A stretch of DNA of 64,000 nucleotides from a virus (taxonomy: Duplodnaviria > Caudoviricetes). The notes under the pieces are model-generated. The model did not search any database and was not told the origin of the DNA. It worked only from the letters and a program-made list of their open reading frames with translations. The position numbers and the translations under genes were made by a program. The stretch covers positions 32,001 through 96,000 of the IMG/VR virus record IMGVR_UViG_3300031993_000027; one strand, given 5' to 3'. Positions 42,602 through 63,564 of this stretch are shown here, piece after piece. Within the stretch, counting starts at the first letter, position 1. Every line of letters begins with the position of its first letter.

Positions 42602-43534
42602 TTATTCCCATTGTCCATAAGCATCTGCCATGATGTAGGATTCTAACCAGTCTGATTCTCCATCACTAGATTTACCTGCACTTACATTGATTTGATACAG
42701 GGTCTTTTTTACAATATCATACCAGTCAAAAGTTATCGTAAAGTTTCTTTCATTCTCTTCTTCAGAAAGTACACAAGTGCTGATAGATACTCTTTTTGTT
42801 ACTGTTTGTGAAGGGTTTGTTTCATCATAAGTCAAATTAAAATAGACCGCTTGGTAATTGCTTATTGCTTCCCAAATCTCTTCAAAGTCTTTATTTATCG
42901 TCAATTCTTCATACGTGGTCAGTGCGTCTATTGTAGCCGAAATAACAAGAGGCGCATTGATACCAAGGTCTTCGTTGGTCAAGTTTCCTTCCAGTTTTAC
43001 ACCGTTGATTTGCGGTTTGCCCTGAAGGTCGTTGTAGTTCATAGGCGCAAGGTTTGTTACTGTATCAAACTCTGCATCTATCACTAGAGGTTCTTCTATC
43101 GGTTCTGTCACATTCAGGTTAGCACCGTACATAATACCTTCTCTAATCGACTGAAGGATTGTAATAGAAACCTTTTTGGAAATGGTTCTTACACCGTTGT
43201 CAAGCAGGACGCTAAGTTCCATATCTGTTGTAAGGTTATTCTGATACCCAACAGACTTGACCGTAGGAATAAGTCTAAGGGTCTCCTGCTGTGTAAGAAG
43301 TACCCATACCCTGTTATTCTCCACGTCTACATTGATAGTATCTGTTTCTCTCTTGATGATAGGTTCTGATGTAGCACCGCATTGAGAGATTGAGAACCAA
43401 AGATTTCTTGCTTGGCTTATATCTACCTGTTCTTTTGGAACGTTAACGATAATAGTCGGGGTCGTTCCACGTTTTATCTGCAAAACCTTGTCTCCCATAT
43501 TTTTCTCCTTCCTGTCAGATAAGTAATTCGTCAT
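42602..43534 (-). CDS. BppU-like/fibre-associated structural protein (probable start MGDKVL)
   Basis: RGTTPT...LTQQETL and YNDLQGKPQINGVKLEGN motifs. Confidence 0.5.
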   Translation of the reverse strand: MTNYLSDRKEKNMGDKVLQIKRGTTPTIIVNVPKEQVDISQARNLWFSISQCGATSEPIIKRETDTINVDVENNRVWVLLTQQETLRLIPTVKSVGYQNNLTTDMELSVLLDNGVRTISKKVSITILQSIREGIMYGANLNVTEPIEEPLVIDAEFDTVTNLAPMNYNDLQGKPQINGVKLEGNLTNEDLGINAPLVISATIDALTTYEELTINKDFEEIWEAISNYQAVYFNLTYDETNPSQTVTKRVSISTCVLSEEENERNFTITFDWYDIVKKTLYQINVSAGKSSDGESDWLESYIMADAYGQWE

Positions 43535-44357
43535 CTAAGTCTATGTCACCTAAGAGCATATCTATGTTGTCTATATTTGACGTTACTCTATCGTAAAGGT
43601 CTTCCTCGTCTTCTTCATCATTGATACCGCTAAAGTAATCAGACAAAGTTCCTTCAAACACTACCTGATAATCGTCAGGCACAGGCAGTCCTTGTATATT
43701 GGTCACATACACCTTTATTGTATCAGATTCCACGTCTTCTTCGATATCGGTTATAACATCATATCCTTCTTTTTTACAACCCTCTTTAAACGCATCTAAG
43801 ATAGCCCCTAGGCAAGAATCCGTAAGTTCATAGTTATGTTCTTTTGCTACATCCCAAATAATATCCTCTACGTCACAATCAGAATTAAACTGTTCCATCC
43901 AGTATTTAAGGTCTTTTATGTTACTGATAGCATTGTATCTATCTTCCTTTTCTTGGTCGTATGCTCTGACTATAAGGACAGGAAACTTCTTGTCCCAACC
44001 GTACAGATTGCCCACAACTAACATACGGTGTAGTCCTTCTTGTCCTTTGTCAGCAAAATTGATAAAAGGAAGGTTGAGTTGTCTTCCGCTTTGTAGTTCG
44101 TTAGTCATCCATTCTATCGTATCAGTATCACGTTCTCTCTGTCTCTTCAAGTCTTCTACGCTTGATTTAGGATGAATATATTTCGAATCAAGTTCAAAGT
44201 ATTCTTTTGGAGACATATAAACGATTTCCCCTGTCCTGTTCTTGGCTTTCTGCTTGTAAGCCAATTCTTCAGGGTCGAGGAAATCATCGTAATAGGACAT
44301 ACCTACTTTGTCTGTCCTAAAAGGTTGTTTAGTTAGTTCTTCATAAACACGTAACAT
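43515..44357 (-). CDS. ParB/Srx-like domain protein with leader MLRVYE
   Basis: MSPKEY...P.I......QEGLHR...PVLI. Confidence 0.55.
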   Translation of the reverse strand: MLRVYEELTKQPFRTDKVGMSYYDDFLDPEELAYKQKAKNRTGEIVYMSPKEYFELDSKYIHPKSSVEDLKRQRERDTDTIEWMTNELQSGRQLNLPFINFADKGQEGLHRMLVVGNLYGWDKKFPVLIVRAYDQEKEDRYNAISNIKDLKYWMEQFNSDCDVEDIIWDVAKEHNYELTDSCLGAILDAFKEGCKKEGYDVITDIEEDVESDTIKVYVTNIQGLPVPDDYQVVFEGTLSDYFSGINDEEDEEDLYDRVTSNIDNIDMLLGDIDLDDELLI

Positions 44358-44364
44358 ATCAATC

Positions 44365-44622
44365 TCACAAGTTTAGTTTATTGACACTGTATTTAATTAC
44401 AGGCTTTCTTCGCCACTCGTCCATATCATTGTCCCACGCTTCTTGATTAAACCTGAAACTACATACATAACTGTACCCATCTTCAACAAGTTCTTCTACA
44501 CTGTCTGTATTGCAAACAGAATACTGATTATCCAATTTTATAACAGACACATCCTGTTGATTCATAGCGTGTTTCTTTGCATTGTTCACCGCACCTTGAT
44601 AAGTCATATTATCCACGTCCAA
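44365..44622 (-). CDS. Hypothetical protein
   Basis: Coupled ORF. Confidence 0.55.
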   Translation of the reverse strand: MDVDNMTYQGAVNNAKKHAMNQQDVSVIKLDNQYSVCNTDSVEELVEDGYSYVCSFRFNQEAWDNDMDEWRRKPVIKYSVNKLNL

Positions 44623-45472
44623 TAGCCTTAATCAAAGCAGGTGTGTATCCACCCTTGCCTCCATTAGCCTTGTAGTATGCCATACAGAGGTCTTCAATAT
44701 ATCTGTACCAATCAGCCATTTCATAATCCGACGTAATGCAAGAATATCCTGTATATTTGAACTCTCCATTCTTGACAATCCAATCAATATATATGTATTC
44801 TGCATCGAATATCTTAGACCTACTTGTTCTTATGTAAGCCTTACCGCCTACGTATTCAGCCATAGCCTTTGCTGTCTCTACATAGCCTACGTCCTTACGA
44901 ACGTCATACATACGAACTAACTCGTCATATACGTCTCTTACATCAGGAAGAAGAGGGTCGCCTGTAAAGTCACTCTCGGTCAACCTAGATTCATAAGCAA
45001 AACGATAGGACAATCCACCACGCTTTCCACGTCCGTAATAGTCCATTGTATCGAGGTCATAAGGCATCGGGTCTTTACCCTTTACCTGCTCGTAGGAAAC
45101 GTCCTCAATAGCATCCTCGTTATCTGCGTTCATAGGAAATGCCTTGTACTTAGGTCTGCCTCCACCAAGGCTGTTTTTCTGATAGCAATACCAACCTCCC
45201 TGACTTCCGACATAAGTATAACCATCCTGCTTTAACTTGTCGTGAAGGGGAGCGTTGTAGAACTCTGTAAGACAGGATTCGTCATAGATATCCATATCAT
45301 ATTCTTCATCCTGCCAAGCGAAGTTAATCCTGTCTTTCAGGTCATAATATGTCTCATAGTCATAATCAGACCACTCGTTCTCGTTAGGATGCTTCTTTAA
45401 AAAGTCCTGAAGTTGTCTTTCTAACGCTCTAGGGTCTTCATAATCCCTATACGTCTCAACTACTCTAATCAT
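44609..45472 (-). CDS. Acidic multidomain protein with leader MIRVVE and internal LTE sites
   Basis: DESCLTEF and YESRLTES linkers. Confidence 0.7.
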   Translation of the reverse strand: MIRVVETYRDYEDPRALERQLQDFLKKHPNENEWSDYDYETYYDLKDRINFAWQDEEYDMDIYDESCLTEFYNAPLHDKLKQDGYTYVGSQGGWYCYQKNSLGGGRPKYKAFPMNADNEDAIEDVSYEQVKGKDPMPYDLDTMDYYGRGKRGGLSYRFAYESRLTESDFTGDPLLPDVRDVYDELVRMYDVRKDVGYVETAKAMAEYVGGKAYIRTSRSKIFDAEYIYIDWIVKNGEFKYTGYSCITSDYEMADWYRYIEDLCMAYYKANGGKGGYTPALIKAIGRG

Positions 45473-45482
45473 ACTTAATTCT

Positions 45483-45634
45483 CCAATATAGAAAACTTAT
45501 AAGAAGAAAACTTCTATGTTTCTTTCCTACTTCAACGAGTGTGCTTTCTTAATTGTTACCAATCAATACTCACAAGTTCTCGCACTCTCCATAGGCGTTA
45601 ATTTCCGACTATTGTATCGGTATCTGTTTTGAAA
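45483..45634 (-). ncRNA. TnpB omega-RNA/right end (IS607-like)
   Basis: Structured non-coding tract after tnpB: ACCGATACAATAGTCGGAAATTAACGCCTATGGAGAGTG...CACTCGTTGAAGTAGG...AAGTTTTC. Confidence 0.6.
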
Positions 45635-46792
45635 TTATATCAGGGCATAATTTCTTAGATTTACACTTGCCTGATAATCTCTATCTATTATATTCCCACA
45701 AACATCACATCTATAAATCCTATTACTTAGTTTTAAGTTATGTTTTATGTTTCCACACTTACAACACTTCTTAGAACTAGGATAGAACCTGTCAGCAATA
45801 ACAAGTCTTATGTTGTTCCATTCACATTTGTATTCTAACTGTCTGTGAATCTCACGGAAACATTGTACCTGTATTGCCTTAGATAAGTGTTTGTTCTTCA
45901 TCATTCCTTTTACATTCAGGTCTTCTATAACAATGAAACTTGGTTCTCGTCTTATTATTTCAGAAGTCATTTGATGTATAAAATTATGACGAATATTAGA
46001 TACCTTATGATTTAGTCGAAGAAATTTAATCTGTTTCTTCTTAATATTCTTAGTTTTTCTATACTTACCTCCTTCTTTATTATTTTCATAACTACGAGAT
46101 ATACTTCTTTGTATTCTCTTTGTCTTTTTATCTAATTGTATCAGTTTCTTGGCTTTATTGATATTAGAATATACAATTTCATCAGAACAAATTGCTAAAT
46201 CTTTAATTCCTAAGTCAATTCCTATTCCTTCATTAGAAGGATTCTTTTCTTCTAATTCTTCCTCAACGCCAACTGTTACCCACCAATTTATACCATCAAA
46301 AGTGAATCTTGGATTATAGTATTTAACTCCTGTTGGTATTCTATTTCTTTCTGCTAGTCTAATCCAATTTATCTTTTGTTTATTGGATTTCTTACTTTGA
46401 GTGAACCCTTCAACTTTAATCTGCGTTTCTGTCACTTTGATTTTACAAGAATCTTGAAAGAAACTAGGCTTACTTTTTCTTTTACTTTTGAATCTTGGAT
46501 ACTCGGATTTTCCTTTGAAGAATTTAATATAAGAAGAACAAGCATCTTTTATCGCTTGTTTTGTTACTTCATTAGAAACCCTATAAAGCCATTCATTCTC
46601 TTTTTGTTTCTTGTATTGAGTGAACAGTTTCCTAAGTTCTCCGTCTTGAACAAAGGTTTTGTTTTCTTGATAAGACTTATTTTCTTGTTCTATAACCCAA
46701 TTATAAGCATAACGAGAAACATTTGCATAGGCAAACATCTTTGTCATTTGCTTATTATTAGGTAAGAGCATTACTTTATAAGTCTTTATCAA
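45635..46792 (-). CDS. tnpB: TnpB RNA-guided endonuclease (IS200/IS605/IS607 family), no transposase nearby
   Basis: N-terminal HTH, GIDLG (D), IEDL (E), CCKC..CDVC Zn finger, DRDYQASVN (D); visibly more AT-rich than its neighbours. Confidence 0.95.
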   Translation of the reverse strand: MIKTYKVMLLPNNKQMTKMFAYANVSRYAYNWVIEQENKSYQENKTFVQDGELRKLFTQYKKQKENEWLYRVSNEVTKQAIKDACSSYIKFFKGKSEYPRFKSKRKSKPSFFQDSCKIKVTETQIKVEGFTQSKKSNKQKINWIRLAERNRIPTGVKYYNPRFTFDGINWWVTVGVEEELEEKNPSNEGIGIDLGIKDLAICSDEIVYSNINKAKKLIQLDKKTKRIQRSISRSYENNKEGGKYRKTKNIKKKQIKFLRLNHKVSNIRHNFIHQMTSEIIRREPSFIVIEDLNVKGMMKNKHLSKAIQVQCFREIHRQLEYKCEWNNIRLVIADRFYPSSKKCCKCGNIKHNLKLSNRIYRCDVCGNIIDRDYQASVNLRNYALI

Positions 46793-47259
46793 GTTTCTGT
46801 ACCTCCATCATAATCTTCAAGGGTAATCTTTTTTCCTGTGACAGCAAACTTCCTTGTATCGTACAATTCTCTCTTCAATTCAGGTCTTTGCTGAAGAACG
46901 GATTCTTTTATCATTTCGTACTCTTCGTCATCCATATTATCAAGCAAAGAAGTAACCGTTGAATTTCTCTCGCTCTCCATCCAATCCTTAATGACCGCAC
47001 AAATAATCTCTTTGTTGTCATTGATAATCTCGTACAGGTCTTCTCTCTTGGCGAACGCTTCATCAGGTTCGATAGTATGACCTTCAGGACAGAGTTCGGT
47101 CAACTCGTTCTCGTATACATCAAGGTTGTTTGCGAACAGGTTGATAATCTCTTCGAAAGCAAGGTCAAAACCTTGAACGAAAGAATCGTCTCCCTCGTTC
47201 AAGAACTTCTCATTGTAATCACTGTCATTTCTTACATCAGGAAATAAGGACATATGCAC
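46789..47259 (-). CDS. Acidic hypothetical protein
   Basis: RBS; its stop codon overlaps the tnpB start. Confidence 0.65.
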   Translation of the reverse strand: MHMSLFPDVRNDSDYNEKFLNEGDDSFVQGFDLAFEEIINLFANNLDVYENELTELCPEGHTIEPDEAFAKREDLYEIINDNKEIICAVIKDWMESERNSTVTSLLDNMDDEEYEMIKESVLQQRPELKRELYDTRKFAVTGKKITLEDYDGGTET

Positions 47260-47260
47260 C

Positions 47261-47578
47261 TCACAACATTGTAAATAGTTTAGAATTACGGTTTGTTATA
47301 GCGTACAGGTCTCCTGTATTTTTATCTCTAAAGAGAATTGCATTGTAGCCATAACCGTTTCTACTTTTGCCTAAAACCTCTTTCTTGATAGACTGAAGAA
47401 ACTTTTTAAATTCCTCGTAGGAATAGTTAGATACATCTTCTGCCATACCGTTTTCTACGTACCAAAGTATGTCCTCTTTAGTACAGGATGTACCTCTTGT
47501 ATTGAGAAGGTCTTTGTATTGATGATTCGACTTAGACCTTCCCCACGTTCTTGCCTCTACCTTGATTTCTCTTATCAT
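47261..47578 (-). CDS. Hypothetical protein with leader MIREIKVE
   Basis: YGYNAIL...G.LYAIT.R motif. Confidence 0.65.
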   Translation of the reverse strand: MIREIKVEARTWGRSKSNHQYKDLLNTRGTSCTKEDILWYVENGMAEDVSNYSYEEFKKFLQSIKKEVLGKSRNGYGYNAILFRDKNTGDLYAITNRNSKLFTML

Positions 47579-48561
47579 AACTCAATAGTCTCTGCATCCC
47601 ACTCGTAACCGTCGTCAGAAACGCCCTTGGATACAAACAGATAAGCAGGTTCGTCATCGTCGTTAAAGAATCCTACTTCGCAAGGCTTGTCATATTCACC
47701 TTCGTCGATATATCCTGCGAGCGTGTAGTCAACGAGACCGTTGTTTACCTTCTTAGGAGAAGCATTGTCGTCAATCCAATATGTGACACCGCCACCTGTT
47801 CTCGGTGCATCTTCACCGCAAACCTTTTTCTGATTGAGAACCTTCTTCTTTTTCTTCTTAGAGCCACAACCTTCGTAAAGGTCTGAATCCTCGTCGTCGA
47901 AGTCGTCCCAATCATCATCGTCAGCAGGGAGGTTAGCGTTGAACTCGTCGATAAACTTATATCCTTCATCGAGAATCCATCCGAAGTCTGAAGAATCTGC
48001 TGAATAGATTGACATATCGGTATCCAATGTGTCACCGTATTCGTTTACAGGATAAGGCATAAGCCAATCCCACTCGTACTCGTTCATCATAGAGTTTCTA
48101 GGACAGTAAGCGAACTTTGCCTGTACAAAGTCTGATTCTCCGTCATAGCCGTAACTCTCTGCACTATCTTCGTCCATATAGCACATAACAACAGCGAAGT
48201 CGTTCTCGTCGTTGTAACCGATATCTACCCAATAAGTAGCGGATGGGTCTTTATCACTCATTGCTCTATTGAACTGTTCCTCGCACTCTTTAAGAGCCTG
48301 TTCCATTTTCTTAGTAACAGTGATTTCAGTATCACCTGCGGAATTTCCAAATCTTTCACTCATATTCGTTTTATTCTCCTTTACATAGTGAGAATTGCCA
48401 CCGTTATAATAGTTTTGAAGCAGGTACAACGCTTCTGTGTCAAGACTAATAGCCTTACTGTTAGCACTCTTCAACATAGCGTGTGCGTATTCGTCATTTG
48501 CTAAATCATTTAACATAACGCTTATTTGTTTAACTTTGTAATCGTCAAAAGGCATATTCAT
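47575..48561 (-). CDS. Very acidic multidomain protein
   Basis: Internal in-frame AAGGAG + ATG at 48363. Confidence 0.7.
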   Translation of the reverse strand: MNMPFDDYKVKQISVMLNDLANDEYAHAMLKSANSKAISLDTEALYLLQNYYNGGNSHYVKENKTNMSERFGNSAGDTEITVTKKMEQALKECEEQFNRAMSDKDPSATYWVDIGYNDENDFAVVMCYMDEDSAESYGYDGESDFVQAKFAYCPRNSMMNEYEWDWLMPYPVNEYGDTLDTDMSIYSADSSDFGWILDEGYKFIDEFNANLPADDDDWDDFDDEDSDLYEGCGSKKKKKKVLNQKKVCGEDAPRTGGGVTYWIDDNASPKKVNNGLVDYTLAGYIDEGEYDKPCEVGFFNDDDEPAYLFVSKGVSDDGYEWDAETIEL

Positions 48562-48567
48562 TCTCCT

Positions 48568-49572
48568 TTACTCTTCTTCGTCAAAATCTTCGTCTTCTTC
48601 GTCCTCGTCCCAATCAGGTTCGAGTTCGTCTTTGTGTTCTTCCCACTTTTCTTTCGCCCAACGTTCGAAGTTCTTATAAAAATCTTGTTCGAATCTTTCA
48701 AGTTCTTCCCTTGTTAGGTTATCTATTTCAAAACCATCGTATTGATTATATACATCAATATAACCATTATCACGAACATAATCTCCATAATCAATGAAGT
48801 CTTCTATTACATCTGAAGCATCAATAATACCTGCTTCGTGGAGTTCATCAAAATAAGAGTTCATTCCAAGGTTTGCATCGTAACTATGACAGTGACCTTT
48901 TTCTTCCCAATACTCAACGTGACTATTGTCTATTTCTTCATCATAAGAACGACAATCTGCTGTTGCAGGTTCAGCAAATAATTCAAGGTTTGCTTCAAGA
49001 TAATCTACGATTGCTCCTGCAAGAGTTTCTTCGATAAACTTAGTATAAGCATCGTCGTTTATTTGATAATATTCTATATGTTTATAAGCATAATCTTTAA
49101 GAAGTCTTGCGATAGTATCATCTGTTTCTTCAATAAGGAATGAGGCATCACCGCCACACGTTTCAAGACCATAACCTTCGTAGTATAAATCGCCATCATT
49201 ATAGTTACGGTAAGCAATCCTGTTGTACGCTCTTACAATCTCACCGCCTTGCGTATCGGAAGTGCCTGACTGTTTAACAAAAGGCTTAAACAAATCTTCC
49301 AACTTCTCGTCTGCGGTCTTATCGCTTTCAAGGATATCTCTAGCAACAGAAATCTCGGCTTCGTGCTCCTTGATGAAAGCCTGTTTTTGTCTCTCGGCTT
49401 CCTCACGCTCTTTAGCCAATCTCTCTGCTTCCTTCTCGTCATCGTACTTCTGCTGTGTCTTACGAGTAACCGTGTCGTAAGAATCGTATCCGTACTGACT
49501 TGCATCTTTAGGAAGCATTATATTACCAACACGGATATAATCATCTTCCGCTTCAAACAGATTAAGTCTCAT
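48568..49572 (-). CDS. Acidic protein with leader MRLNLFE
   Basis: GEIVRAYNRIAYRNYNDGD motif. Confidence 0.7.
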   Translation of the reverse strand: MRLNLFEAEDDYIRVGNIMLPKDASQYGYDSYDTVTRKTQQKYDDEKEAERLAKEREEAERQKQAFIKEHEAEISVARDILESDKTADEKLEDLFKPFVKQSGTSDTQGGEIVRAYNRIAYRNYNDGDLYYEGYGLETCGGDASFLIEETDDTIARLLKDYAYKHIEYYQINDDAYTKFIEETLAGAIVDYLEANLELFAEPATADCRSYDEEIDNSHVEYWEEKGHCHSYDANLGMNSYFDELHEAGIIDASDVIEDFIDYGDYVRDNGYIDVYNQYDGFEIDNLTREELERFEQDFYKNFERWAKEKWEEHKDELEPDWDEDEEDEDFDEEE

Positions 49573-49629
49573 AATTATTCTCCTTTAGATTTTTACATAA
49601 AAATACCTACTGTTTCCATTATTAAATAA

Positions 49630-49660
49630 AAAGCCCCTAAATGCAAGACTTAGGGACTTT
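49630..49660 (-). terminator. Intrinsic terminator
   Basis: AAAG.CCCTAA/TTAGGG.CTTT plus T-run. Confidence 0.6.
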
Positions 49661-49675
49661 AAACATCAAACATTA

Positions 49676-50488
49676 TTAGAAATAAAAGTCTACGTAGACC
49701 ATCTTATCGCCCTTGAAATCACGCCAAGAGTTCATATCGGAATACTTCGTACAACCGAACGTTCTTGTTGCCCTGTCATACTCACCCTTGATATAAACCT
49801 GCGAATCCTTTGGAGAAGGAATATCCTTCAGCGTAAAGAGGTCTCCCTGCTTCAAGGACTTCAACGGAACAGGTGTTTGAGCACTCCAATTAGTCGTATC
49901 AACAGCATCTTCGTCGTACTTCTCTGTGAACCTGATAGGAACTCTGAAACTTACCAACTGATTGTTCTTGTACTTTCCTGTCGGTATGTATCCTTCAAAT
50001 TGGAAGCCAAACCTATTAATTTTGTCTTTAGGAAGTTTAGTTCCGAACTTGTCGTCATCGTCAGTAGCGTTATTAGGTCTAGTGAAGTTCAACGTTCTCT
50101 TGTCGAACGTTACCATCGTAGAACCGTCGGATACATAGATAATGCCGAAGAAATCTTCATCCTTCCAAATGATAGATTCCTGATTGAGAAGTCTACCGAT
50201 TTCAAGAGCCGTTTCCTTCTCAATGTTGTAGAGAATAAAACTCTTCTCAAAGCCTACCGTTCCACTATCATAGGTATAAGTTCCGTTGACAAAGTTGAAG
50301 CCACGAACCTTGCCCTTGTCCGAATACTTGCGGATAAGGTCTCTAAGTTCGTCATACCTGCTCTCGTAGGTATCCTTGTCCTGACTTCCTATAATAGCAA
50401 AAGTAACACTATCGGTAAGATGTTGATAGATTCTACCATAACTTGCTTCTAACAGATTGTCTCTGCTTTCAAGTTCTATAACTGCCAT
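49676..50488 (-). CDS. Conserved large-phage protein (LLEASYGRIYQH...EKSF...QESI) with leader
   Basis: Motif pattern; MAVIELE leader. Confidence 0.65.
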   Translation of the reverse strand: MAVIELESRDNLLEASYGRIYQHLTDSVTFAIIGSQDKDTYESRYDELRDLIRKYSDKGKVRGFNFVNGTYTYDSGTVGFEKSFILYNIEKETALEIGRLLNQESIIWKDEDFFGIIYVSDGSTMVTFDKRTLNFTRPNNATDDDDKFGTKLPKDKINRFGFQFEGYIPTGKYKNNQLVSFRVPIRFTEKYDEDAVDTTNWSAQTPVPLKSLKQGDLFTLKDIPSPKDSQVYIKGEYDRATRTFGCTKYSDMNSWRDFKGDKMVYVDFYF

Positions 50489-50535
50489 TTGTCTTTCCTC
50501 CTTCTTCTTAGATTACAGGGCATCCCTGCATCTTT

Positions 50536-50560
50536 CTTAACGAGACAGCGAGATTGAATC
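50536..50560 (-). promoter_or_regulatory. Class B promoter-like motif GATTCAA-N10-TCGTTAAG
   Basis: Same spacing as the other copies. Confidence 0.6.
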
Positions 50561-52264: not shown

Positions 52265-52606
52265 TTATTCTTCAAATTTATCAAGCAGTTCATCTTCGTA
52301 GTATATCTCGTCATATTCAATGCCGAGTTCGTTCAGATACTCTACTAACGGATACCTGCCATACTCGTCTTCTAAATTTTCCCACAGGTCTTCATAATAA
52401 TACGAGCGATAATTCTCGCCATCATCTATTTCTTCGACCAATCCTTCTTCAAAGTAGTCATTATAATTCATGTCGCTATCAACTTCTATGCCTAACGATA
52501 TGCAAGCAAATATTTCAGGGTCAACTTCAACAACATCAAACAACGTCCAATGGAGTTGAGGCATATAGGCTGTGCTTAAATCTGTTTCTGCTACAACTAT
52601 TCTCAT
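52265..52606 (-). CDS. Very acidic protein with leader MRIVVAE
   Basis: RBS and composition. Confidence 0.65.
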   Translation of the reverse strand: MRIVVAETDLSTAYMPQLHWTLFDVVEVDPEIFACISLGIEVDSDMNYNDYFEEGLVEEIDDGENYRSYYYEDLWENLEDEYGRYPLVEYLNELGIEYDEIYYEDELLDKFEE

Positions 52607-52609: not shown

Positions 52610-53095
52610 TCATTTTCTCCTATGTTCATATAGTTTACCGAAGATATAGAACCTTCTTATTTTATCCACAACTTCATCAGATATCATATCAGACAATCTA
52701 TACTTCTGCACCTGTCCATCGTAGGTATAGACTTCAACGAAGTTTTGTTTCGCCCCTAACATATCAAGCCACACAAGAAGAACCTTGTACTGTTCATCGG
52801 TCAACTGTCTTTCAGGTAAGACCATATACCACTTTGTCGTATCGCATCTGATACATCCAAGGTCAAACATGGTTTGACTTCCCTGTGTTGCTTTATACTC
52901 GTTTTCGGAGTATCCGTTGTCAATCAGGAACTTCTCAACGTCCGAATGATGTGTATATCTTCTTAAATCCAAGAACTTGCCATCAGGCATTATGTAGGTA
53001 ATGCCTTTAAACGGTAAATCTTCTGTTCCAAATTCTTTTTCAATTATGGAAAGAAGTTCTTTTTCAGTTTGTTCCTGTTCTAAGAAGAGTTTCAT
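52610..53095 (-). CDS. Hypothetical protein with leader MKLFLE
   Basis: YIMPDGKFLD...H motif. Confidence 0.65.
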   Translation of the reverse strand: MKLFLEQEQTEKELLSIIEKEFGTEDLPFKGITYIMPDGKFLDLRRYTHHSDVEKFLIDNGYSENEYKATQGSQTMFDLGCIRCDTTKWYMVLPERQLTDEQYKVLLVWLDMLGAKQNFVEVYTYDGQVQKYRLSDMISDEVVDKIRRFYIFGKLYEHRRK

Positions 53096-54116: not shown

Positions 54117-55097
54117 TTAATCTAACACTTCGATTTGCGGAATCCCTAACTTGTTGCAAGTATCGAAAGCGAACTGTTTTTCTTCTTCAGTAGGTCTGTA
54201 AAGTCCATCCTTCGCATACTTCTTGAAAAGGCTGTAAAACGTATCTTCACAATCCTTATATTCATCTTCGTTGGATGCGATATAAATGAAGTCATCTTCC
54301 GATGGTTCGTCAGGACATACGTAAATCCAAGAGTAATAAGCATCCTCGTTGTTCATCGAAGTCATAACGTTGTGCATCAACTTAATGTTGTTCAAGAGTT
54401 GCTCGTCGTACTTCGGGGGTTCATCTTCTTTTACTCCGTTGTTAAGGATATCCTGTACATAATCCATTATGAAGTCTAATGCCTGTTCATAGGTCTCTAT
54501 ATCGTAGATATTACTTGCATCTAACGTTTCGTTTTCCTTGCTGTATGTAACCCTTACCCAACTTGCTGTAACAATCCTTTTTCCAAAGGCATTTATACTA
54601 TATTCAAAATCCCAATTTACCTTGAATGTTTCTTCGTATTCTTCTACTCTGAAAATATCTATATACCTTGAAAATCTTTCTGTATCAAACGGAATACCTA
54701 AAGATTTAATCGCCATATCTATTCCGAATCCAACAACCTCACGGAAATAAGCAGGGTCGATTTCATCTGAAAAAGCAATGTTAACGGATGAACCATCATT
54801 CTTGAATACATCATAGAACCTGTATCTAGCATTATCGTTAATGCCGTATTTGTCCTCACAGAGATTGAGTTTCATAGAGCCGTTGTTTTTGTTCTCATAG
54901 AATACGTCATCATATTCAAGAATTTCGCTCTCTCCTGTTTCTGTATCCGTGATTTCTACTACGTGTCCGTTGCCTACAAATTCATAGGCGTTAGCATAAG
55001 CCTCGGATTTGTCATCAGTATAGAAATCATCTGCGAGACCACGAAGGTTTCCGTCGTAGTATGCTTTCACCTCATATCTGTAATCTCCGTATGCCAT
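54117..55097 (-). CDS. Acidic multidomain fusion protein (internal MKLNLCE at 54875)
   Basis: Internal leader. Confidence 0.7.
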   Translation of the reverse strand: MAYGDYRYEVKAYYDGNLRGLADDFYTDDKSEAYANAYEFVGNGHVVEITDTETGESEILEYDDVFYENKNNGSMKLNLCEDKYGINDNARYRFYDVFKNDGSSVNIAFSDEIDPAYFREVVGFGIDMAIKSLGIPFDTERFSRYIDIFRVEEYEETFKVNWDFEYSINAFGKRIVTASWVRVTYSKENETLDASNIYDIETYEQALDFIMDYVQDILNNGVKEDEPPKYDEQLLNNIKLMHNVMTSMNNEDAYYSWIYVCPDEPSEDDFIYIASNEDEYKDCEDTFYSLFKKYAKDGLYRPTEEEKQFAFDTCNKLGIPQIEVLD

Positions 55098-56295: not shown

Positions 56296-56307
56296 ACTTT
56301 TTCCTCC

Positions 56308-56613: not shown

Positions 56614-56625
56614 AGTTTTTCTCCT

Positions 56626-56856
56626 TTATTTTACTTCCCAATCACATCTATCGGTCACATCATAATACTTGCCATTTAAATCCCAACTTAAAAGTTTCCC
56701 ACTATCGGTAACAATATATGAAGTCCACCAATTAGATTCGTCTTCAGGTGTATATTCATAACCATCACCAAATTCAGACCCTTGTCGAGTTCTTCTTATG
56801 TATTCTTTGCCATCAACATAGAGTTTATCTTCAATGCTTTCTCTTACAGGTATCAT
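56626..56856 (-). CDS. Small protein with leader MIPVRE
   Basis: RBS. Confidence 0.65.
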   Translation of the reverse strand: MIPVRESIEDKLYVDGKEYIRRTRQGSEFGDGYEYTPEDESNWWTSYIVTDSGKLLSWDLNGKYYDVTDRCDWEVK

Positions 56857-56867
56857 TCTTATTCTCC

Positions 56868-57071
56868 TTACTTATACTGACTAAGTTTTCTGACCCAGTG
56901 CATGAAAATTCCAAACGAAGGGAATGTGTTCGGGTCAAGGTCATCACTTATATTGTCGTAATACTCTCTCAACTCTTCGTTAGACAGACCTCTCAACATT
57001 TCAAGTTCCTTGCTAGAAAAGTCGTGAGTACCAAGTTTGTCCTTCTTGGCTTCCGTAACTTCGATAACCAT
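56868..57071 (-). CDS. Small protein with leader MVIEVTE
   Basis: RBS. Confidence 0.65.
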   Translation of the reverse strand: MVIEVTEAKKDKLGTHDFSSKELEMLRGLSNEELREYYDNISDDLDPNTFPSFGIFMHWVRKLSQYK

Positions 57072-57098
57072 ATTAATTCTCCTTCCAATAACATCATT

Positions 57099-57127
57099 AG
57101 TTTAGCACTATACTACCCTAATGTCAA
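57099..57127 (-). promoter_or_regulatory. Class A promoter TTGACA-17-TAAACT with TAGGGTAG box
   Basis: Shared box. Confidence 0.7.
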
Positions 57128-57185
57128 CAACTATCCTTTATTAAGTTAAATTTACACTTTTCAACATAAAAAGGCAAGAGTTGAA

Positions 57186-57470
57186 TCAACTCTTACCTTC
57201 CCAAAATTCTGATGTTAGTGCGTCCTCTTTAGCCAAGGCATACAGACTATCTATGTCATATCCTTGGTCGTCTGTCCAATAATCCTTAAAGATTGCAAAC
57301 TCGTCGTTCTCAATAGGATAGATGGAGTAGAATACATCGGGGTTCTGTCTGTCTCCAACGAACCACCACCTGCGTCTTGCATCGTCTGTACCGATTACTT
57401 TTGCCACAGACCAGTCGAAGTCACTTTCGGAATACCCTTCGTATCTATTCTCAAACAACGGAAGTTTCAT
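57186..57470 (-). CDS. Small protein with leader MKLPLFE
   Basis: RBS. Confidence 0.65.
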   Translation of the reverse strand: MKLPLFENRYEGYSESDFDWSVAKVIGTDDARRRWWFVGDRQNPDVFYSIYPIENDEFAIFKDYWTDDQGYDIDSLYALAKEDALTSEFWEGKS

Positions 57471-57482
57471 GTTTATTCTCCT

Positions 57483-57809
57483 TTACCATGTAATTGTGGC
57501 AATCAGTCTGTCTCTAAGAAACGCCTGTCTGCCCTTATATTTTGTCATAGAACGAGGATTGAACTCGCCCTTAGTTGCATATTCATAGTCACCTGTTTCA
57601 AAGGAAATGTCAAATCCGTTATCAACGAACCATTTACCGAGCATACCGTCGCTCATAAGTTCCTCTTCAGTAGTGCCTTTAGGAAAAGGAATGATTATCT
57701 TATGATTTTCGTCATCAAACGTTGCCCCTTTAAACGGTTTAACGTGATTATATGCTTGCCAAAGAATATCACCTGATATTTCTTTTTCGTCCACTCTAAT
57801 CATACTCAT
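57483..57809 (-). CDS. Small protein with leader (MS)MIRVDE
   Basis: RBS. Confidence 0.65.
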   Translation of the reverse strand: MSMIRVDEKEISGDILWQAYNHVKPFKGATFDDENHKIIIPFPKGTTEEELMSDGMLGKWFVDNGFDISFETGDYEYATKGEFNPRSMTKYKGRQAFLRDRLIATITW

Positions 57810-57821
57810 TCTCCTCCTAAC

Positions 57822-58154
57822 TTATTTATACAGTATGCTTGCAATTTCTTCTACGTCACGTAGTTCACCTTTTGCAATACTTAGAACGCACTCTATAAGT
57901 TCGTCTTCAGTACAGGTATAGTCGCATATAATAGCACCTATTATCGTTGCTGTTCTTTTGTTTCCGTCTTGGAAGCCGTGTCCAATAGTAAGAGACCTTA
58001 CAAGAGCACTTGCTCTTAATCTGTCATCATCATACCACTGTTGAGTACCCAAAGCCGACAGTAGGTTATCCTCGTTTATAACAACTGAACGTTCGTGAGC
58101 AAGATTACACACGCACTCGTTAACACCGATTAAGTAGTCAAGGTCAATTATCAT
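57822..58154 (-). CDS. doc: Fic/Doc family toxin
   Basis: HGFQDGNKRTA motif. Confidence 0.8.
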   Translation of the reverse strand: MIIDLDYLIGVNECVCNLAHERSVVINEDNLLSALGTQQWYDDDRLRASALVRSLTIGHGFQDGNKRTATIIGAIICDYTCTEDELIECVLSIAKGELRDVEEIASILYK

Positions 58155-58315
58155 CCAAGAACCCTCATAGCCTTTGCATACTTCTTCACATAGAACATAG
58201 CATCACGATAGCCTCTTTTCTGCGAAGCGGTCAACTCTCTTCCATCAAAAGATTCCTTCTTAACAGGAGTGTTATGATTCTTATTGTTATATTTATTTTC
58301 GATTACTCTAATCAT
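58151..58315 (-). CDS. 54-aa putative antitoxin with leader MIRVIE
   Basis: Hand-translated (below the ORF track cutoff); AAGGAGG RBS; ATGA overlap with doc; C-terminal helix KKYAKAMRVLG. Confidence 0.6.
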   Translation of the reverse strand: MIRVIENKYNNKNHNTPVKKESFDGRELTASQKRGYRDAMFYVKKYAKAMRVLG

Positions 58316-58327
58316 AGCCTTGCCTCC

Positions 58328-58750
58328 TTATCTATCTAAATAACACTTGTAGTGTTCAGAACCGTCAGGGTTCATTACTACTTTAGTTATACCATTGTTC
58401 TTAGTTAAATTGAACTTATCTATTAACCAATCTAACACTTCCTGTGTACAAATATTAGGATTAGCATAAATAGTTGCTTTTCCTCTATTTATTTCAATTC
58501 TTCCTCTAGGGAAATAATCAAAAGGTTTGTTGTGTGTCTCTTTAGGAGTTAGTTCTTTCCAAACTAATCTATGGTTATAGTTGTCTCCGTTCTTAGAGTT
58601 CAGGTGCATCACTTCAGGATTTATTACTATTCCATCCGAAGTAACAGGTATTTGAAAGTACAACTGATTAGCATACACGTTGTCTAAATCAGTTATCCAA
58701 AAGATACCCTTATATAAATCCCTGTCTTCTGTTAAGAGCCTTATAGCCAT
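58328..58750 (-). CDS. Conserved phage protein (FDYFPRGRIE..DGSEHY) with leader MAIRLLTE
   Basis: Motif. Confidence 0.65.
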   Translation of the reverse strand: MAIRLLTEDRDLYKGIFWITDLDNVYANQLYFQIPVTSDGIVINPEVMHLNSKNGDNYNHRLVWKELTPKETHNKPFDYFPRGRIEINRGKATIYANPNICTQEVLDWLIDKFNLTKNNGITKVVMNPDGSEHYKCYLDR

Positions 58751-58780
58751 ATTTTATCTCCTTTATGATAATCTACCCTA

Positions 58781-58809
58781 AGATTATCACTTCTACTACC
58801 CTATGTCAA
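58781..58809 (-). promoter_or_regulatory. Class A promoter TTGACA-17-TAATCT with two TAGGGTAG boxes and a palindrome over the -10
   Basis: TGATAATCT-N6-AGATTATCA. Confidence 0.7.
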
Positions 58810-58812
58810 GTC

Positions 58813-59100
58813 TTACCAATATCCTTTGTCTTTCATCATTTTAGAATACTGTTCGTAGTGTTCATCCGTCATATATTCAGTAGGAGAATGGAACTCTTTA
58901 AGAACGTTTCTCATATAGTCTAAGCCTTTAAAAGAACTGTGTTCTCCGTTTTCCCAATCCACCTCTATTGGTCTGTATTCACGATTAGTGTCATCGTCAA
59001 ATTCAATCTCGCCCTTGTAAATATCAACGACATAAGGCTTGTATTCTTTAGGAATATACTTCATAAGATAAGGGTCACGATTTTCCAATATGTTTATCAT
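58813..59100 (-). CDS. Small protein with leader MINILE
   Basis: Coupled ORF. Confidence 0.65.
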   Translation of the reverse strand: MINILENRDPYLMKYIPKEYKPYVVDIYKGEIEFDDDTNREYRPIEVDWENGEHSSFKGLDYMRNVLKEFHSPTEYMTDEHYEQYSKMMKDKGYW

Positions 59101-59579: not shown

Positions 59580-59595
59580 CTTATCCCTCTTGGCA

Positions 59596-59892: not shown

Positions 59893-59903
59893 TGCTCGTC
59901 TCC

Positions 59904-60194
59904 TTAATATCTAGGCGTATCGTCTGTTTCAATCCAAAAGTGGTGTCCTCTGTCCATCGAGTATTGCTTCCAATCGAACTTGTCTACTCGGACATAGGAA
60001 GAGATATGTCTTCCTCCTGCACCTGTCCAATATCCGTTCTTAACCATCTTACAGCGTTCGCCTGTATCTTCGATTGTCCCACTGATTACAGGGACGTAAT
60101 CAACGTAGTCTACACCGTAACCTTCGTTGCCTTGCCAATCTTTTCCGTCAGTGCCACCGAGTTCGTTTATATTGTCTTCCAACGCCCTAATCAT
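59904..60194 (-). CDS. Small protein with leader MIRALE
   Basis: RBS. Confidence 0.65.
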   Translation of the reverse strand: MIRALEDNINELGGTDGKDWQGNEGYGVDYVDYVPVISGTIEDTGERCKMVKNGYWTGAGGRHISSYVRVDKFDWKQYSMDRGHHFWIETDDTPRY

Positions 60195-60205
60195 AGTGAT
60201 TCTCC

Positions 60206-60535
60206 TTAGTATTTGTCTATCTTTGCCAACGCTCTATCATCAGGGAACACCGCAAAAAAGAAATCCCAAAATTCTTTTGCTAATTCCCTATCATCAATAT
60301 CTCCATATTCATACTCTTTAGCGAGTGTTTCCCCTGTACTTCCCTTAATCGGATTAGTAGGGTCAGATATTGCTTTCCAAAACTCCCTACACACTTTATA
60401 GAAAAGATTGTAAGGGTCAGAATTGATAGCATAGTTCCAATCCTTGATTTCATTCATAAAAGCCTTCATAGTGACAGCGTTTTGAACGGCTTTTATTCCA
60501 TCAGAGTCATATAACATTTCTACTACTCTAATCAT
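60206..60535 (-). CDS. Small protein with leader MIRVVE
   Basis: RBS. Confidence 0.65.
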   Translation of the reverse strand: MIRVVEMLYDSDGIKAVQNAVTMKAFMNEIKDWNYAINSDPYNLFYKVCREFWKAISDPTNPIKGSTGETLAKEYEYGDIDDRELAKEFWDFFFAVFPDDRALAKIDKY

Positions 60536-60915
60536 AGCAGGTCTCCTTTATCTACTTGTTCGTCATAAACATATACTTCATCAAGCCAATCATAGCGACT
60601 GTGACCATCACGAACGTCTCCTGCAAGAACAATTTTTACTGACAAACTTTCTTCGCCAACACTTCCGTATCCGTAATCTTTTCTGCCCTTTTTGTGATAA
60701 GGTTTCAAGTCGATAGACTTCATAAACTGTTTTGCTTCTGTCTTTGTCCTGAATCCTTCAGGTGTAGTGTAAATGTTTCTGCGGAAAGTTTGACCTGTTA
60801 CTCCTTCTGCATATTGATAAAAATACCTTGTCTCAATAACATATCTGTTTTCAGGGATGTTTAAGTTCTCCCATCTACAAGTTCTAGGCTTTTCGCTCTC
60901 TAAAATTCTAATCAT
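60532..60915 (-). CDS. Small protein with leader MIRILE (start corrected)
   Basis: GGAGG RBS before ATG 60915. Confidence 0.65.
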   Translation of the reverse strand: MIRILESEKPRTCRWENLNIPENRYVIETRYFYQYAEGVTGQTFRRNIYTTPEGFRTKTEAKQFMKSIDLKPYHKKGRKDYGYGSVGEESLSVKIVLAGDVRDGHSRYDWLDEVYVYDEQVDKGDLL

Positions 60916-60917
60916 AT

Positions 60918-61364
60918 TCAAACCTCCCAACCTATTTTTTCTGTCGTCTTCTTCAGGTTATTAAAAAACCTATTCAACGTAGAGAGACATTCCTTCTCTC
61001 CAAATGTAAGGTTAAACTTAGGACTTTTTACCCAATGATACGTCTGATTACCATAAACACCCATCTTCTTAACGTAATGCCTATAACAAAGTATTGTAGG
61101 CACATCACTATCTTTTAGCGATTTATAAACGCTAACCTCGACCTGAAATGTGTCGTTCGCTCTGTTTGCTTCTTCGAGACTAGAATAGTTTCCGTAGAAG
61201 AATTTGAACATATTAACATCGTCCTCTCCGTCATCATCATCAAAGTCGTATACTTTGCCGTGTTCATAGAAGCAAGAACCATTAGGGAAGATACTAAGAT
61301 ACAGGTCTTTTACTTGCTCGAAGAAGTCTTCGTATCTGCCGTTGTTTTCTATAAGTCTAATCAT
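60918..61364 (-). CDS. Protein with leader MIRLIE
   Basis: RBS. Confidence 0.65.
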   Translation of the reverse strand: MIRLIENNGRYEDFFEQVKDLYLSIFPNGSCFYEHGKVYDFDDDDGEDDVNMFKFFYGNYSSLEEANRANDTFQVEVSVYKSLKDSDVPTILCYRHYVKKMGVYGNQTYHWVKSPKFNLTFGEKECLSTLNRFFNNLKKTTEKIGWEV

Positions 61365-61379
61365 AATTAGTCTCCTTTA

Positions 61380-61760
61380 TCACAAAGTACCTAAAACTCG
61401 CCAAGGTGCTTCTTCATTAAACAGGTCTTCTCTTATCCACTTTGAAGCCTCTGTTGTTGTAGTAGCACCGTAGTTAAGAATAATTAGTTTACCGTCTTCT
61501 ATCTTATAACCCATCCAACCATATGAGCCACGATAACGAGAACCTTTTGGAATGTGTCTCCCAACAATTCCGTACTCAACGCCATTCTTACTTCCTAACT
61601 TTTTCATAAGTCCGAAAGCATTTTCTCCTGAATAACCACGTAAAGGGTTATCATTATGCCCTTCAGGATACTGAACCCTTCCGTTAACAATATTGAGTTT
61701 ACCGTAACCTGTTCCATTCTCCCTTCCCATTACATCTATATATTCTGCTACTCTAATCAT
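61380..61760 (-). CDS. Protein with leader MIRVAE (start corrected)
   Basis: AAGGAG RBS before ATG 61760. Confidence 0.65.
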   Translation of the reverse strand: MIRVAEYIDVMGRENGTGYGKLNIVNGRVQYPEGHNDNPLRGYSGENAFGLMKKLGSKNGVEYGIVGRHIPKGSRYRGSYGWMGYKIEDGKLIILNYGATTTTEASKWIREDLFNEEAPWRVLGTL

Positions 61761-61764
61761 TTTA

Positions 61765-62259
61765 TTATTCTCCTTTGTTATTGTGAAAGTTAACAAGGTT
61801 GTACTTTCTACAAAATTTTTCGAGTTCTCCAATGCTAGATATTTTGTTTAATATATCCTCATACTCCTTGTAAAATTCTAAACATCCAAGAAACTCTTTA
61901 AAGGATATGCTTCCTTCAAAATAATCCCTGCAATCTTCTTCGTTGACCATGCCATCCCAAGCCAAGCAGAAGATAACCAAATATTTGCGGAAGAAATTCT
62001 TCATTTCTCTTATTTCTTTATTGCTAATTTTTCTTGGCTCGTTTCCTTTAACATAGTCCCAGTTGCTATGAAGTTCAAGATTCCCTGCATCTTCGATATG
62101 AATCTTTTCAGGGTCAAACAGTACCTTAACTCTAATATCGTGGCTAGAGTTCTTTCCTGAAAAATAAAATGAAAAAGGCAATTTGTCCGTGACTTTAACT
62201 TTTGCTCCACGGACGTTAGCCATTTCGAACAAAAAATCTTCGTTTGAAACTTCAATCAC
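61765..62259 (-). CDS. DUF4160-like protein with leader MIEVSNEDFLFE
   Basis: MANVRG...LP...SH.IRVKV. Confidence 0.5.
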   Translation of the reverse strand: MIEVSNEDFLFEMANVRGAKVKVTDKLPFSFYFSGKNSSHDIRVKVLFDPEKIHIEDAGNLELHSNWDYVKGNEPRKISNKEIREMKNFFRKYLVIFCLAWDGMVNEEDCRDYFEGSISFKEFLGCLEFYKEYEDILNKISSIGELEKFCRKYNLVNFHNNKGE

Positions 62260-62273
62260 AGACTTTACCTCCT

Positions 62274-62651: not shown

Positions 62652-62696
62652 TGTCGTATTCTCCTCTCAAAATAAAATAACCTATTCGGTAATCTA

Positions 62697-62726
62697 AGAT
62701 TACCATAATAGGCTACCCTATGTCAA
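62697..62726 (-). promoter_or_regulatory. Class A promoter TTGACA-18-TAATCT with TAGGGTAG box and palindrome
   Basis: GGTAATCT-T-AGATTACC over the -10. Confidence 0.65.
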
Positions 62727-62734
62727 GAACTATT

Positions 62735-63115
62735 TTATTTTGGATATACGACAGGTATATCGTGGTGGATTAAGTTGTCTACTCTCTCCTGTTCTGTGGA
62801 ATAGTTAGCAGGGTTGATATAGGAATTATCCCAAGCCTCTTTGAGTTGTTCTGCGTAGGCTTTGTCGATATCATCGGCACTACTGGTAGGTGTCGCATAA
62901 TAATCGTTCAGGATTGCCACGATTTCTGCTTTTCTAGTAGAAGTGGCACTTGACCATTCTCCCATAAATCCGATGATTTCATCGAGCATATCATAGGAAT
63001 AGTCTTTTTCCATAACGTCTTCCGAAGAGAAGTTAGCGGATGCTTCTGCTGATACTGTGGTTATCAGGAAGTCAGAAATGTTGTCCAATCCATTTGAAGT
63101 AACATAGAGTTTCAT
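62735..63115 (-). CDS. Hypothetical protein
   Basis: RBS. Confidence 0.65.
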   Translation of the reverse strand: MKLYVTSNGLDNISDFLITTVSAEASANFSSEDVMEKDYSYDMLDEIIGFMGEWSSATSTRKAEIVAILNDYYATPTSSADDIDKAYAEQLKEAWDNSYINPANYSTEQERVDNLIHHDIPVVYPK

Positions 63116-63132
63116 TTTTTATTCTCCTTCCA

Positions 63133-63564
63133 TTATGGTTTCAAAATACAATTATCCAACCACGCATCAATCTTAGTTGGATTCCACAATTCAAAATACC
63201 ATTCACGATTATACTTTTTAAGAACTTCATTCATCTTATCTTTTAATGTAGGAGTATCATACATCATTCGATAGTATTCTTCTTTACTCATAGGAGTTTC
63301 ACCAAGTTCTCTACTGATAGACTTATATTCTCCATAATCTATAAAATCGTTTTCATCAAAATATGCTTCGGCTTCCATAGATACTTTTATATTTTCATCT
63401 TCTTTTCCAATATCTACTCTTAACATATAATCATCAGAAGGAAGTTGACCATATAATTCTTCATAGTCATAACCAAAATGCTTATTGAATGTATCAGTAA
63501 GTTCTTTCTCTAATTGTGATTTACTAATCACTATTCCTTTAGATTCATTTAATACTGTAATCAT
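63133..63564 (-). CDS. Acidic protein with leader MITVLNE
   Basis: Coupled ORF. Confidence 0.65.
   Translation of the reverse strand: MITVLNESKGIVISKSQLEKELTDTFNKHFGYDYEELYGQLPSDDYMLRVDIGKEDENIKVSMEAEAYFDENDFIDYGEYKSISRELGETPMSKEEYYRMMYDTPTLKDKMNEVLKKYNREWYFELWNPTKIDAWLDNCILKP

Follow-up and report, generated by a model that had tools for sequence, protein, structure and literature searches.

About two dozen otherwise unrelated genes of an uncultured phage begin with a short leader of 5–9 residues, the last of which is Glu. These genes lie in a block that falls partly within the window analyzed here, a 64,000-nucleotide (nt) stretch that corresponds to bases 32001–96000 of IMG/VR record IMGVR_UViG_3300031993_000027, a complete viral sequence of 127,491 bp flanked by direct terminal repeats. 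Comparison with a related IMG/VR record, G001 (128,410 bp, terminal repeats, GC 32%), and with further phage records makes it highly probable that the leader is a real, separable tag, selected as a peptide and varying between lineages, that serves as an address or processing signal on interchangeable accessory proteins.

Genes sharing the leader

Almost all genes of the window lie on the minus strand. Following the direction of transcription, the order is a terminase large subunit with an intein, a T4-type portal (genome 103 kb; Pfam Portal_T4, E = 2e-57), the leader block, ∼45 small genes, an S77 protease fusion and then a gp23-type major capsid protein (MCP), neck and sheath. The leader block comprises ∼28 kb of small ORFan genes, from 43.5 kb of the window to ∼71 kb, past the window's end. 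The original prediction had named 21 Glu-ending leaders on ∼20 unrelated genes, and all 21 were recovered, on the minus strand at 43515–63564. The end that it set for the block at 63564 has to be moved, as leaders continue beyond the window to the portal gene (MIRVINE, MIKVE, MSEQMILVE). Nearly all leaders start 6–9 nt downstream of an AAGGAG-type ribosome-binding site (RBS). The leader genes are as follows (lengths in amino acids, aa).

43515..44357, minus: 280-aa gene, leader MLRVYE; no Pfam or PHROG match
44609..45472, minus: 287-aa gene, leader MIRVVE; three modules with disordered linkers ending in CLTE-70 and RLTE-166
47261..47578, minus: 105-aa gene, leader MIREIKVE
48568..49572, minus: 334-aa gene, leader MRLNLFE; no usable match in the ESM Atlas
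49676..50488, minus: 270-aa gene, leader MAVIELE
52265..52606, minus: 113-aa gene, leader MRIVVAE
52610..53095, minus: 161-aa gene, leader MKLFLE; the G001 homologue as called is without the first 35 residues
53100..54104, minus: 334-aa fused gene, internal leader MKLNLFE from 53522
54117..55097, minus: 326-aa fused gene, internal leader MKLNLCE from 54875
56626..56856, minus: 76-aa gene, leader MIPVRE
56868..57071, minus: 67-aa gene, leader MVIEVTE
57186..57470, minus: 94-aa gene, leader MKLPLFE
57483..57803, minus: 106-aa gene, leader MIRVDE
58151..58315, minus: 54-aa gene, leader MIRVIE
58328..58750, minus: 140-aa gene, leader MAIRLLTE
58813..59100, minus: 95-aa gene, leader MINILE
59904..60194, minus: 96-aa gene, leader MIRALE
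60206..60535, minus: 109-aa gene, leader MIRVVE
60532..60915, minus: 127-aa gene, leader MIRILE
60918..61364, minus: 148-aa gene, leader MIRLIE
61380..61760, minus: 126-aa gene, leader MIRVAE
61765..62259, minus: 164-aa gene with GTG start, leader MIEVSNE
63133..63564, minus: 143-aa gene, leader MITVLNE, the type dominant in G001
Beyond the window, in the block: PRTase-like protein, 261 aa, leader MIRVINE
Beyond the window, in the block: BspA-type leucine-rich repeat (LRR) protein, 973 aa, leader MSEQMILVE
Beyond the window, in the block: 53-aa gene directly after the portal, leader MIKVE
Genome 111 kb, elsewhere than the block: second BspA-type LRR protein, leader MIRPLNE

Across the whole genome, a strict leader pattern, M[ILV]x[ILVAP]x{1,2}E, begins 14 of 47 block genes and 2 of 167 genes elsewhere (Fisher p = 9e-9), while a looser, Glu-anchored rule is satisfied by 23 of 47 and 13 of 167, respectively (p = 1.5e-9). 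Starts with MIR show the same bias (10/41 block genes versus 2/173 others). The motif had been described as nearly absent from the ∼45 small genes at 24–42 kb, where we indeed find essentially none. The strict pattern is also missing from all 232 control genes drawn from five other phages, which include the three nearest cultured relatives.

The proteins behind the leaders range from 53 to 982 aa, with differing predicted folds, and all-against-all BLASTP (E 0.01) detects no similar pair except the two LRR proteins outside the window. Pfam and PHROGs assign no family to 26 of the 28 leader-bearing block proteins that were scanned; of the remaining two, the 334-aa fused gene has counterparts in two PHROGs without an assigned function, and matches are otherwise weak (E above 0.002). 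At the DNA level, there are seven occurrences of ATGATTAGRNT in the window where shuffled sequence would give 0.7, and every match is at a gene start. Codon 2 of the MIR leaders is mostly ATT, which makes up 35% of Ile codons genome-wide, and 5′ of the leader ATG there is only the generic RBS common to all genes. The exact DNA pattern of RBS plus ATGATTAGAGT..GAA gave 17 isolated single matches in IMG/VR and no arrays, which makes it uninformative, and a literature search with the leader strings returned nothing relevant.

Peptide conservation and exchange of the leader

G001 is collinear with the window's phage, its structural proteins being 40–70% identical, and has a syntenic block of 21 kb between portal and protease. 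Within this block the strict pattern begins 14 of 41 genes, versus 1 of 146 elsewhere (p = 1e-9); the leaders include MITVLNE (three times), MITVLE (twice), MITILNE, MIDILNE, MLRVIIE, MIRVIIE and others. For most G001 block genes, BLAST finds no counterpart in the window's phage; the cargo has thus been replaced behind a retained leader. The original prediction had suggested checking whether related phages conserve the leader as the cargo changes, and in G001 this check is positive, a syntenic block carrying the same kind of leader on mostly different proteins.

These counts leave negligible room for chance, compositional bias or diverged paralogues of a single family. Although short hydrophobic N-terminal strands are common, and the loose rule fits ∼5% of positions, whether internal Met or random, chance is difficult to reconcile with Fisher probabilities of ∼1e-9 in two genomes and none of 232 controls. 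Paralogues would not be expected to lack pairwise similarity and to differ so widely in size and predicted fold. Chance and paralogy are therefore excluded by the leader counts across genomes and controls.

Identical leader peptides in G001 are written in different codons (ata/att/atc, act/aca, gtt/gta, tta/ctt), and it is thus the peptide, rather than DNA or mRNA, that is under selection. Because of this synonymous variation we consider it very unlikely that the leader genes share their start as an element of translation initiation or of the mRNA, such as A/U-rich early codons or the site of a translational regulator. Like such an element, the conserved ATGATTAGAGT is rich in A/U and falls within the initiation region, but capsid, sheath and other structural genes are without it, the constraint reaches as far as the Glu at codon 6–8 and takes in alternating hydrophobic residues, the leaders of G001 differ at wobble positions, and upstream of the ATG there is only the RBS.

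The leader is an appendage that is separable from the folded cargo, and structure predictions for two of the proteins show it as disordered. In AlphaFold2 models, the predicted local distance difference test (pLDDT) score is below 50 at residues 1–21 of the MKLNLFE module (the C-module of the 53100–54104 gene) and at residues 1–11, 56–71 and 131–164 of the 287-aa MIRVVE protein; the two architectures differ. A Foldseek search of the PDB with the MKLNLFE module gave nothing at E 0.001. Two homologues of the 287-aa protein from another phage lineage (P0019 and P0020) begin at the residue right after the leader, and others have an extra upstream module together with a decayed internal leader copy, KVRMAE. 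The only LxE tripeptides of this protein, CLTE-70 and RLTE-166, each lie at the end of a predicted disordered linker, and mosaic junctions in its homologues coincide with both. In addition, an inserted module in this family is flanked by repeats of a DESYLRE linker motif. We rejected an "ESxLxE" linker motif as a general feature of the block, since it is limited to one protein family, and a search for related loci with the 287-aa protein found nothing.

The genes at 53100–54104 and 54117–55097 appear to have arisen when a gene that has no leader was fused in frame to one that bears it. Each still has the leader Met within its frame (at 53522 and 54875, respectively), preceded in frame by a fossil RBS, the RBS-like GGAGAA. 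Database homologues join three different N-modules to the same C-module exactly at the leader Met, and recombination evidently uses leaders as joints.

It could be argued that the shared start is mainly such a joint, left over from cassette duplication, with the RBS and first codons as the only homology between neighboring ORFan cassettes, which would be shuffled, fused and replaced in frame there, and a peptide that has no function of its own. The junctions at the leader Met, the DESYLRE repeats and the two in-frame fossils would all follow, as would the conservation of DNA beyond the need of the peptide in the window's phage (the excess of ATGATTAGRNT and the ATT codon of most MIR leaders), and linker-mediated shuffling has a precedent in T4-type phages (PMC2839356). 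A joint alone accounts for the shuffling and for the uniformity of the DNA here, but it does not account for the synonymous variation in G001. Furthermore, many leaders (MRLNLFE, MAVIELE, MAIRLLTE, MINILE) are alike in nothing but a physicochemical pattern with its final Glu, and this pattern is kept between phages whose DNA has diverged (GC 39% in the window's phage, 32% in G001). Use as a joint is an expected by-product of any shared tag and is compatible with a function of the peptide, and we regard a functionless joint as improbable. The DNA uniformity in the window's genome is consistent with a peptide constraint to which a recent spread, through duplication or recombination, has been added.

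The PRTase-like protein allows the tag to be followed into other lineages. It has 319 relatives among cluster representatives, and in an alignment of 117 PRTase-like representatives an invariant Gly marks the start of the conserved body in 100. Most often this Gly is preceded by Glu (66 representatives); Ser (11), Ala (9) and Asp (5) are rarer, and upstream of it stands anything from nothing to 35 residues, or a whole extra domain again ending in Glu. In eight phage contigs that carry the family, its tag resembles those of neighboring unrelated genes. Such matches occur in at least four lineages: the window's phage (MIRVINE) and three other IMG/VR phage records, L042 (MKRYIKS beside MKIYVKS and MLRYVKHS), L048 (MIIKLNE, of the type MxIxINE, beside MKLSIRE and two genes with MKIRINE) and L045 (MKLKFKNVAE beside three ..NVFE genes, type ..NV[AF]E). 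It follows that the tag varies between lineages and is swapped as a unit at a fixed boundary. A further record, L047, has an eight-gene M[KV]RYI[KR]S array around a partial PRTase-like match, and unbiased clustering of N-terminal 7-mers gave arrays of 8–10 genes in three of these genomes. Arrays of unrelated genes starting with M[KV]RY[IV][KR][SA] are also seen across L026, L027, L042 and L047 (IMG/VR records of phages of 106–253 kb), where this different, lineage-specific tag stands on the PRTase-like family too.

Relation to the head protease

A protease that would suit such a tag is encoded downstream of the block, together with candidate head substrates:

21998..23572, minus: prohead protease of the S77/T4 gp21 family, to which a scaffold-like coiled-coil tail is fused (PF03420, E = 3.8e-10; PHROG 207)
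20555..21979, minus: gp23-type MCP (PF07068, E = 3e-53)
17342..18847, minus: head-module protein of 501 aa whose Arg-rich repeats all end in V-R-x-E, as seen on alignment to its G001 orthologue

The gp21-like protease, which had already been recognized from the sequence, scores 40 bits with Pfam Peptidase_S77 (PF03420) against a cut-off of 27. The protein (524–532 aa) consists of an N-terminal Peptidase_S77 domain and a long coiled-coil tail, and starts with MAKKVLTE here and MSILLTE in the G001 orthologue. Candidate propeptide sites in the MCP that are conserved with G001 are xMVE, CLE-N and KA[MF]E-AT. In the 501-aa protein, very acidic tracts precede the Arg-rich repeats, which are fewer in the G001 orthologue; it may be a protamine-like polyprotein and, as such, a candidate multi-site substrate of the head protease.

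The leaders are compatible with the cutting rule of this protease family. Among 48 leaders from the two phages, in which Glu at P1 is imposed by the selection rule, P3 is Leu, Val, Ile or Phe in 39, P1′ is Ser, Ala, Asp, Thr, Asn or Gly in 36, and the length is 6–7 residues in 36. The T4 protease gp21 cuts at ITE-6 and LTE-619 in Alt and at LIE-9 in gp21 itself; Alt, an injected enzyme, loses exactly six N-terminal residues (PMC5694885, PMC9026906). The T4 internal proteins have only a targeting sequence of 10–19 residues in common (PMC5694885, PMC9026906, PMC3012670).

Our tentative proposal is that the leader is a capsid-loading and cleavage signal for the T4-type head protease. The leader (Met, Ile/Leu, any residue, Val/Ile/Leu, one or two further residues, Glu) would be a portable propeptide that is recognized inside the prohead during assembly. 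By binding to the core, which the S77 protease-scaffold fusion forms, it would bring any protein attached to its C-terminal side into the head. Cleavage by the protease behind the leader Glu, at hydrophobic-x-Glu followed by a small residue, would then free the mature protein within the capsid, to be delivered together with the DNA. In the products of in-frame gene fusions, the cuts would fall at the internal leaders that have been kept or at LTE linkers. Prohead-core binding, cleavage, packaging and injection are all proposed from sequence. A wider generalization, of which we are doubtful, is that large S77 phages use lineage-specific short N-terminal address tags to load dozens of swappable accessory proteins, with families such as the PRTase-like one moving by tag swap at a fixed boundary and fusions resolved by the same protease.

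Several observations weigh against the capsid-loading proposal. Apart from the hydrophobic-x-Glu end, the leader has no sequence similarity to the T4 targeting sequence MKTYQEFIAE, and the candidate MCP site KAME/AT has Ala, which is not hydrophobic, at P3. When the protease N terminus was scored against the leaders with a position-specific scoring matrix in five lineages, it ranked 20/190, 4/164, 20/35, 16/200 and 44/154; these ranks are only weakly suggestive, and we do not rely on the idea that the protease N terminus co-varies with the tag across lineages. The MKRYIKS-type tags have no terminal Glu, yet the phages that carry them have S77 proteases. Such a protease is above the Pfam cut-off in all five phage records tested, a co-occurrence that counts in favor of the proposal but that could reflect the general make-up of large myoviruses; cultured relatives have the protease without the array. 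Leader-like starts are also present on proteins that are not head cargo, which calls for caution in predicting cargo from sequence alone: the tail sheath (window 11717–13396) starts with MPSITINE here and with MPRVIINE in G001.

The position of the block in the head module also counts for little. No cultured phage with a leader array is known. The cultured phages with the nearest capsid proteins (∼42% identical) are Listeria phage LIS04 (filed under Thornevirus SP15), Streptococcus phage GXN1 and Bacillus phage HSE3, all of which are without a leader array though they have the S77 protease; a Megablast search of cultured phages with 44 kb of the window gave no match. In HSE3 and LIS04, the stretch that separates portal from protease contains ribonucleotide reductase genes. 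The portal-protease locus is a general insertion site, and for this reason the position is weak evidence for packaging.

Promoters and protein charge bear on the same question. Ten sigma-70-type promoters with an embedded inverted CTACCCTA/TAGGGTAG repeat are found in the genome, four of them, all strong, in the leader block and six in other non-structural regions, and none precedes a structural gene. Their positions are given below, where labels L005–L008 denote stretches of the window's own genome.

57072..57185, minus: sigma-70-type cassette, TTGACA-TAGGGTAG...TAAACT, in the leader block
58751..58812, minus: sigma-70-type cassette, TTGACATAGGGTAG...TAATCT TAGGGTAG, in the leader block
62652..62734, minus: sigma-70-type cassette, in the leader block
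Further cassettes: window 32487–32566 and 41954–42013; L005:4012–4083; four plus-strand sites in L007 and L008

Two subclasses can be distinguished, TTGACATAT.CTACCCTA..TATACT TAGGGTAC and TTGACATAGGGTAG..TAATCT, the latter confined to the leader block; the cassettes may be operator sites of a phage regulator. In T4-type phages, promoter/stem-loop (PeSL) cassettes mark early, fast-evolving ORFan regions (PMC2839356), and by this analogy cassettes of early type within the leader block would speak against head cargo. Most leader genes are 10–15 nt apart with no cassette between them, no consensus sigma-70-type promoter lies between the block genes of G001, and a generic promoter scan gave 60 sites against 61.5 expected, which is the chance level. 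The proteins are predominantly acidic: the median pI is 5.0 for leader genes, 4.2 for the rest of the block and 4.6 for the leader proteins of G001, and a pI above 8 is found for 17% of leader proteins here and 0% in G001. T4 internal proteins, in contrast, are described as highly basic (10.1101/2021.01.19.427310).

These features could point instead to a tag that addresses some other common partner without head packaging, for instance as a degron for timed degradation that is read by a phage or host protease or chaperone, as the recognition site of a modifying enzyme or as a docking site on the virion exterior. Small acidic proteins behind early-type promoters are typical of early host-takeover genes, the two tagged proteins of ∼980 aa are of the adhesin-like BspA-type LRR class, and the MKRYIKS-type tags of other S77 phages do without the Glu. 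We nevertheless think this somewhat unlikely. The invariant terminal Glu, hydrophobic P3 and small P1′ fit the S77 cutting rule, and in both phages such a peptide also begins the prohead protease. A radical-SAM enzyme is rejected as the partner, since neither the window's genome nor G001 has a gene for one, and the protease is the one candidate partner identified.

If the leader does load the head, the injected proteome of uncultured phages would become predictable from sequence alone, and a six- or seven-residue label would bring in about eight times the three internal proteins of T4. It would also provide a very short natural loading tag for phage capsid engineering and a pool of candidate first-minute counter-defence proteins. 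Even without capsid loading, a peptide-selected, lineage-varying tag that is exchanged before a fixed boundary calls for a shared partner, and none is described for such a tag in the literature searched.

Neighboring features and comparison with known systems

Within the leader block there is a TnpB/IS605 OrfB-type gene (Cas12f1-like TNB, OrfB_IS605 and helix-turn-helix domains; window 45635–46792), with two further copies, 35–38% identical, at genome 21173–22315 and 122544–123632. An ArdA anti-restriction gene (L005:69–863; Pfam 6.5e-32) lies in the block just past the window's end, and at the same place in G001. It is leaderless, and it is the sole pointer that hints at an anti-defence role of the block. 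The 24–42 kb block has recurring starts of its own, MKLIIDIPE/MKLVIELPE and MNNDLI (window 27368–27646, 27823–28104 and 28285–28671; L006:11077–11454 and 11834–12370). Unlike the leader genes, these are genuine paralogues, with BLAST similarity over 50–90 residues. A stand-alone open reading frame (ORF) of 250 aa (L007:1816–2568) is 81% identical to residues 197–430 of the downstream terminase gene (genome 105322–106809). MKLNLFE and MKLPLFE resemble the β-clamp-binding motif QL[SD]LF; the majority MIRVxE type does not fit it.

In G001, of which L032 and L033 are stretches, the major capsid gene is in at least four pieces (L033:5389–11062, equivalent to G001 45389–51062). The gaps contain ORFs that start with MYGYIY.. 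and are GIY-YIG homing endonuclease-like, and the pieces are probably separated by introns. Another element that recurs in G001, (C/G)(A/T)TTAGAAA(C/G)G, often as a doublet, precedes start codons by ∼30 nt, in one case by 70 nt (L032:9363–9479, L032:15762–15871, L033:1420–1556 and L033:11754–12057). Three instances lie in the leader block or at its edge, the fourth in the head-neck module; few as they are, they may represent a phage-specific promoter.

The literature searched covers the T4 case, but not arrays of such size or such a peptide. The MKRYI, MNWYK and MNRYDIALGKKPPP tags of large phages are alike in that one short tag stands on many unrelated accessory genes, although MKRYI-type tags are a different peptide with no terminal Glu. 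The block also resembles PeSL regions, with sigma-70-type promoters that contain an inverted repeat and an ORFan-rich content that turns over fast (PMC2839356). PeSLs, however, are intergenic DNA of ∼100 bp, whereas the leader is translated and its peptide is kept against synonymous change. With four cassettes for ∼45 block genes and a shared element that is coding, a PeSL-type linker role does not suit the leader.

In the giant phages phiKZ, 201phi2-1 and SPN3US, homologous proteases cut many head proteins after the Glu of a three-residue motif, and the paralogues gp53 and gp54 have an identical 15-residue N terminus (PMC5694885, PMC10052503). There, P3 is Ala, Ser or Gly, and the propeptides, mostly of 20–254 residues, form no common short tag on unrelated proteins.

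The capsid-targeting sequence (CTS) of T4 is, like the leader, short, N-terminal and Glu-ending, is found on otherwise unrelated, non-essential proteins and is removed by an S77 protease, gp21; it is also portable to foreign proteins (PMC9026906, PMC3012670, 10.1101/2021.01.19.427310). It differs in being longer (MKTYQEFIAE; 10–19 residues, against 5–9 here) and in its cargo, three basic proteins as against ∼24 mostly acidic ones, and the early-type promoters of the leader block have no counterpart in the CTS case. Acidic block proteins do not fit cargo of the T4 internal-protein type, which is small, highly basic and DNA-associated. T4 Alt offers a further parallel. It is a single protein rather than an array, and even in T4 its six residues may either serve in targeting or simply be trimmed off, but its propeptide is in the same length class as MIRVVE and has an Ile/Leu-x-Glu end, an ending that is shared by MAIRLLTE and MITVLNE.

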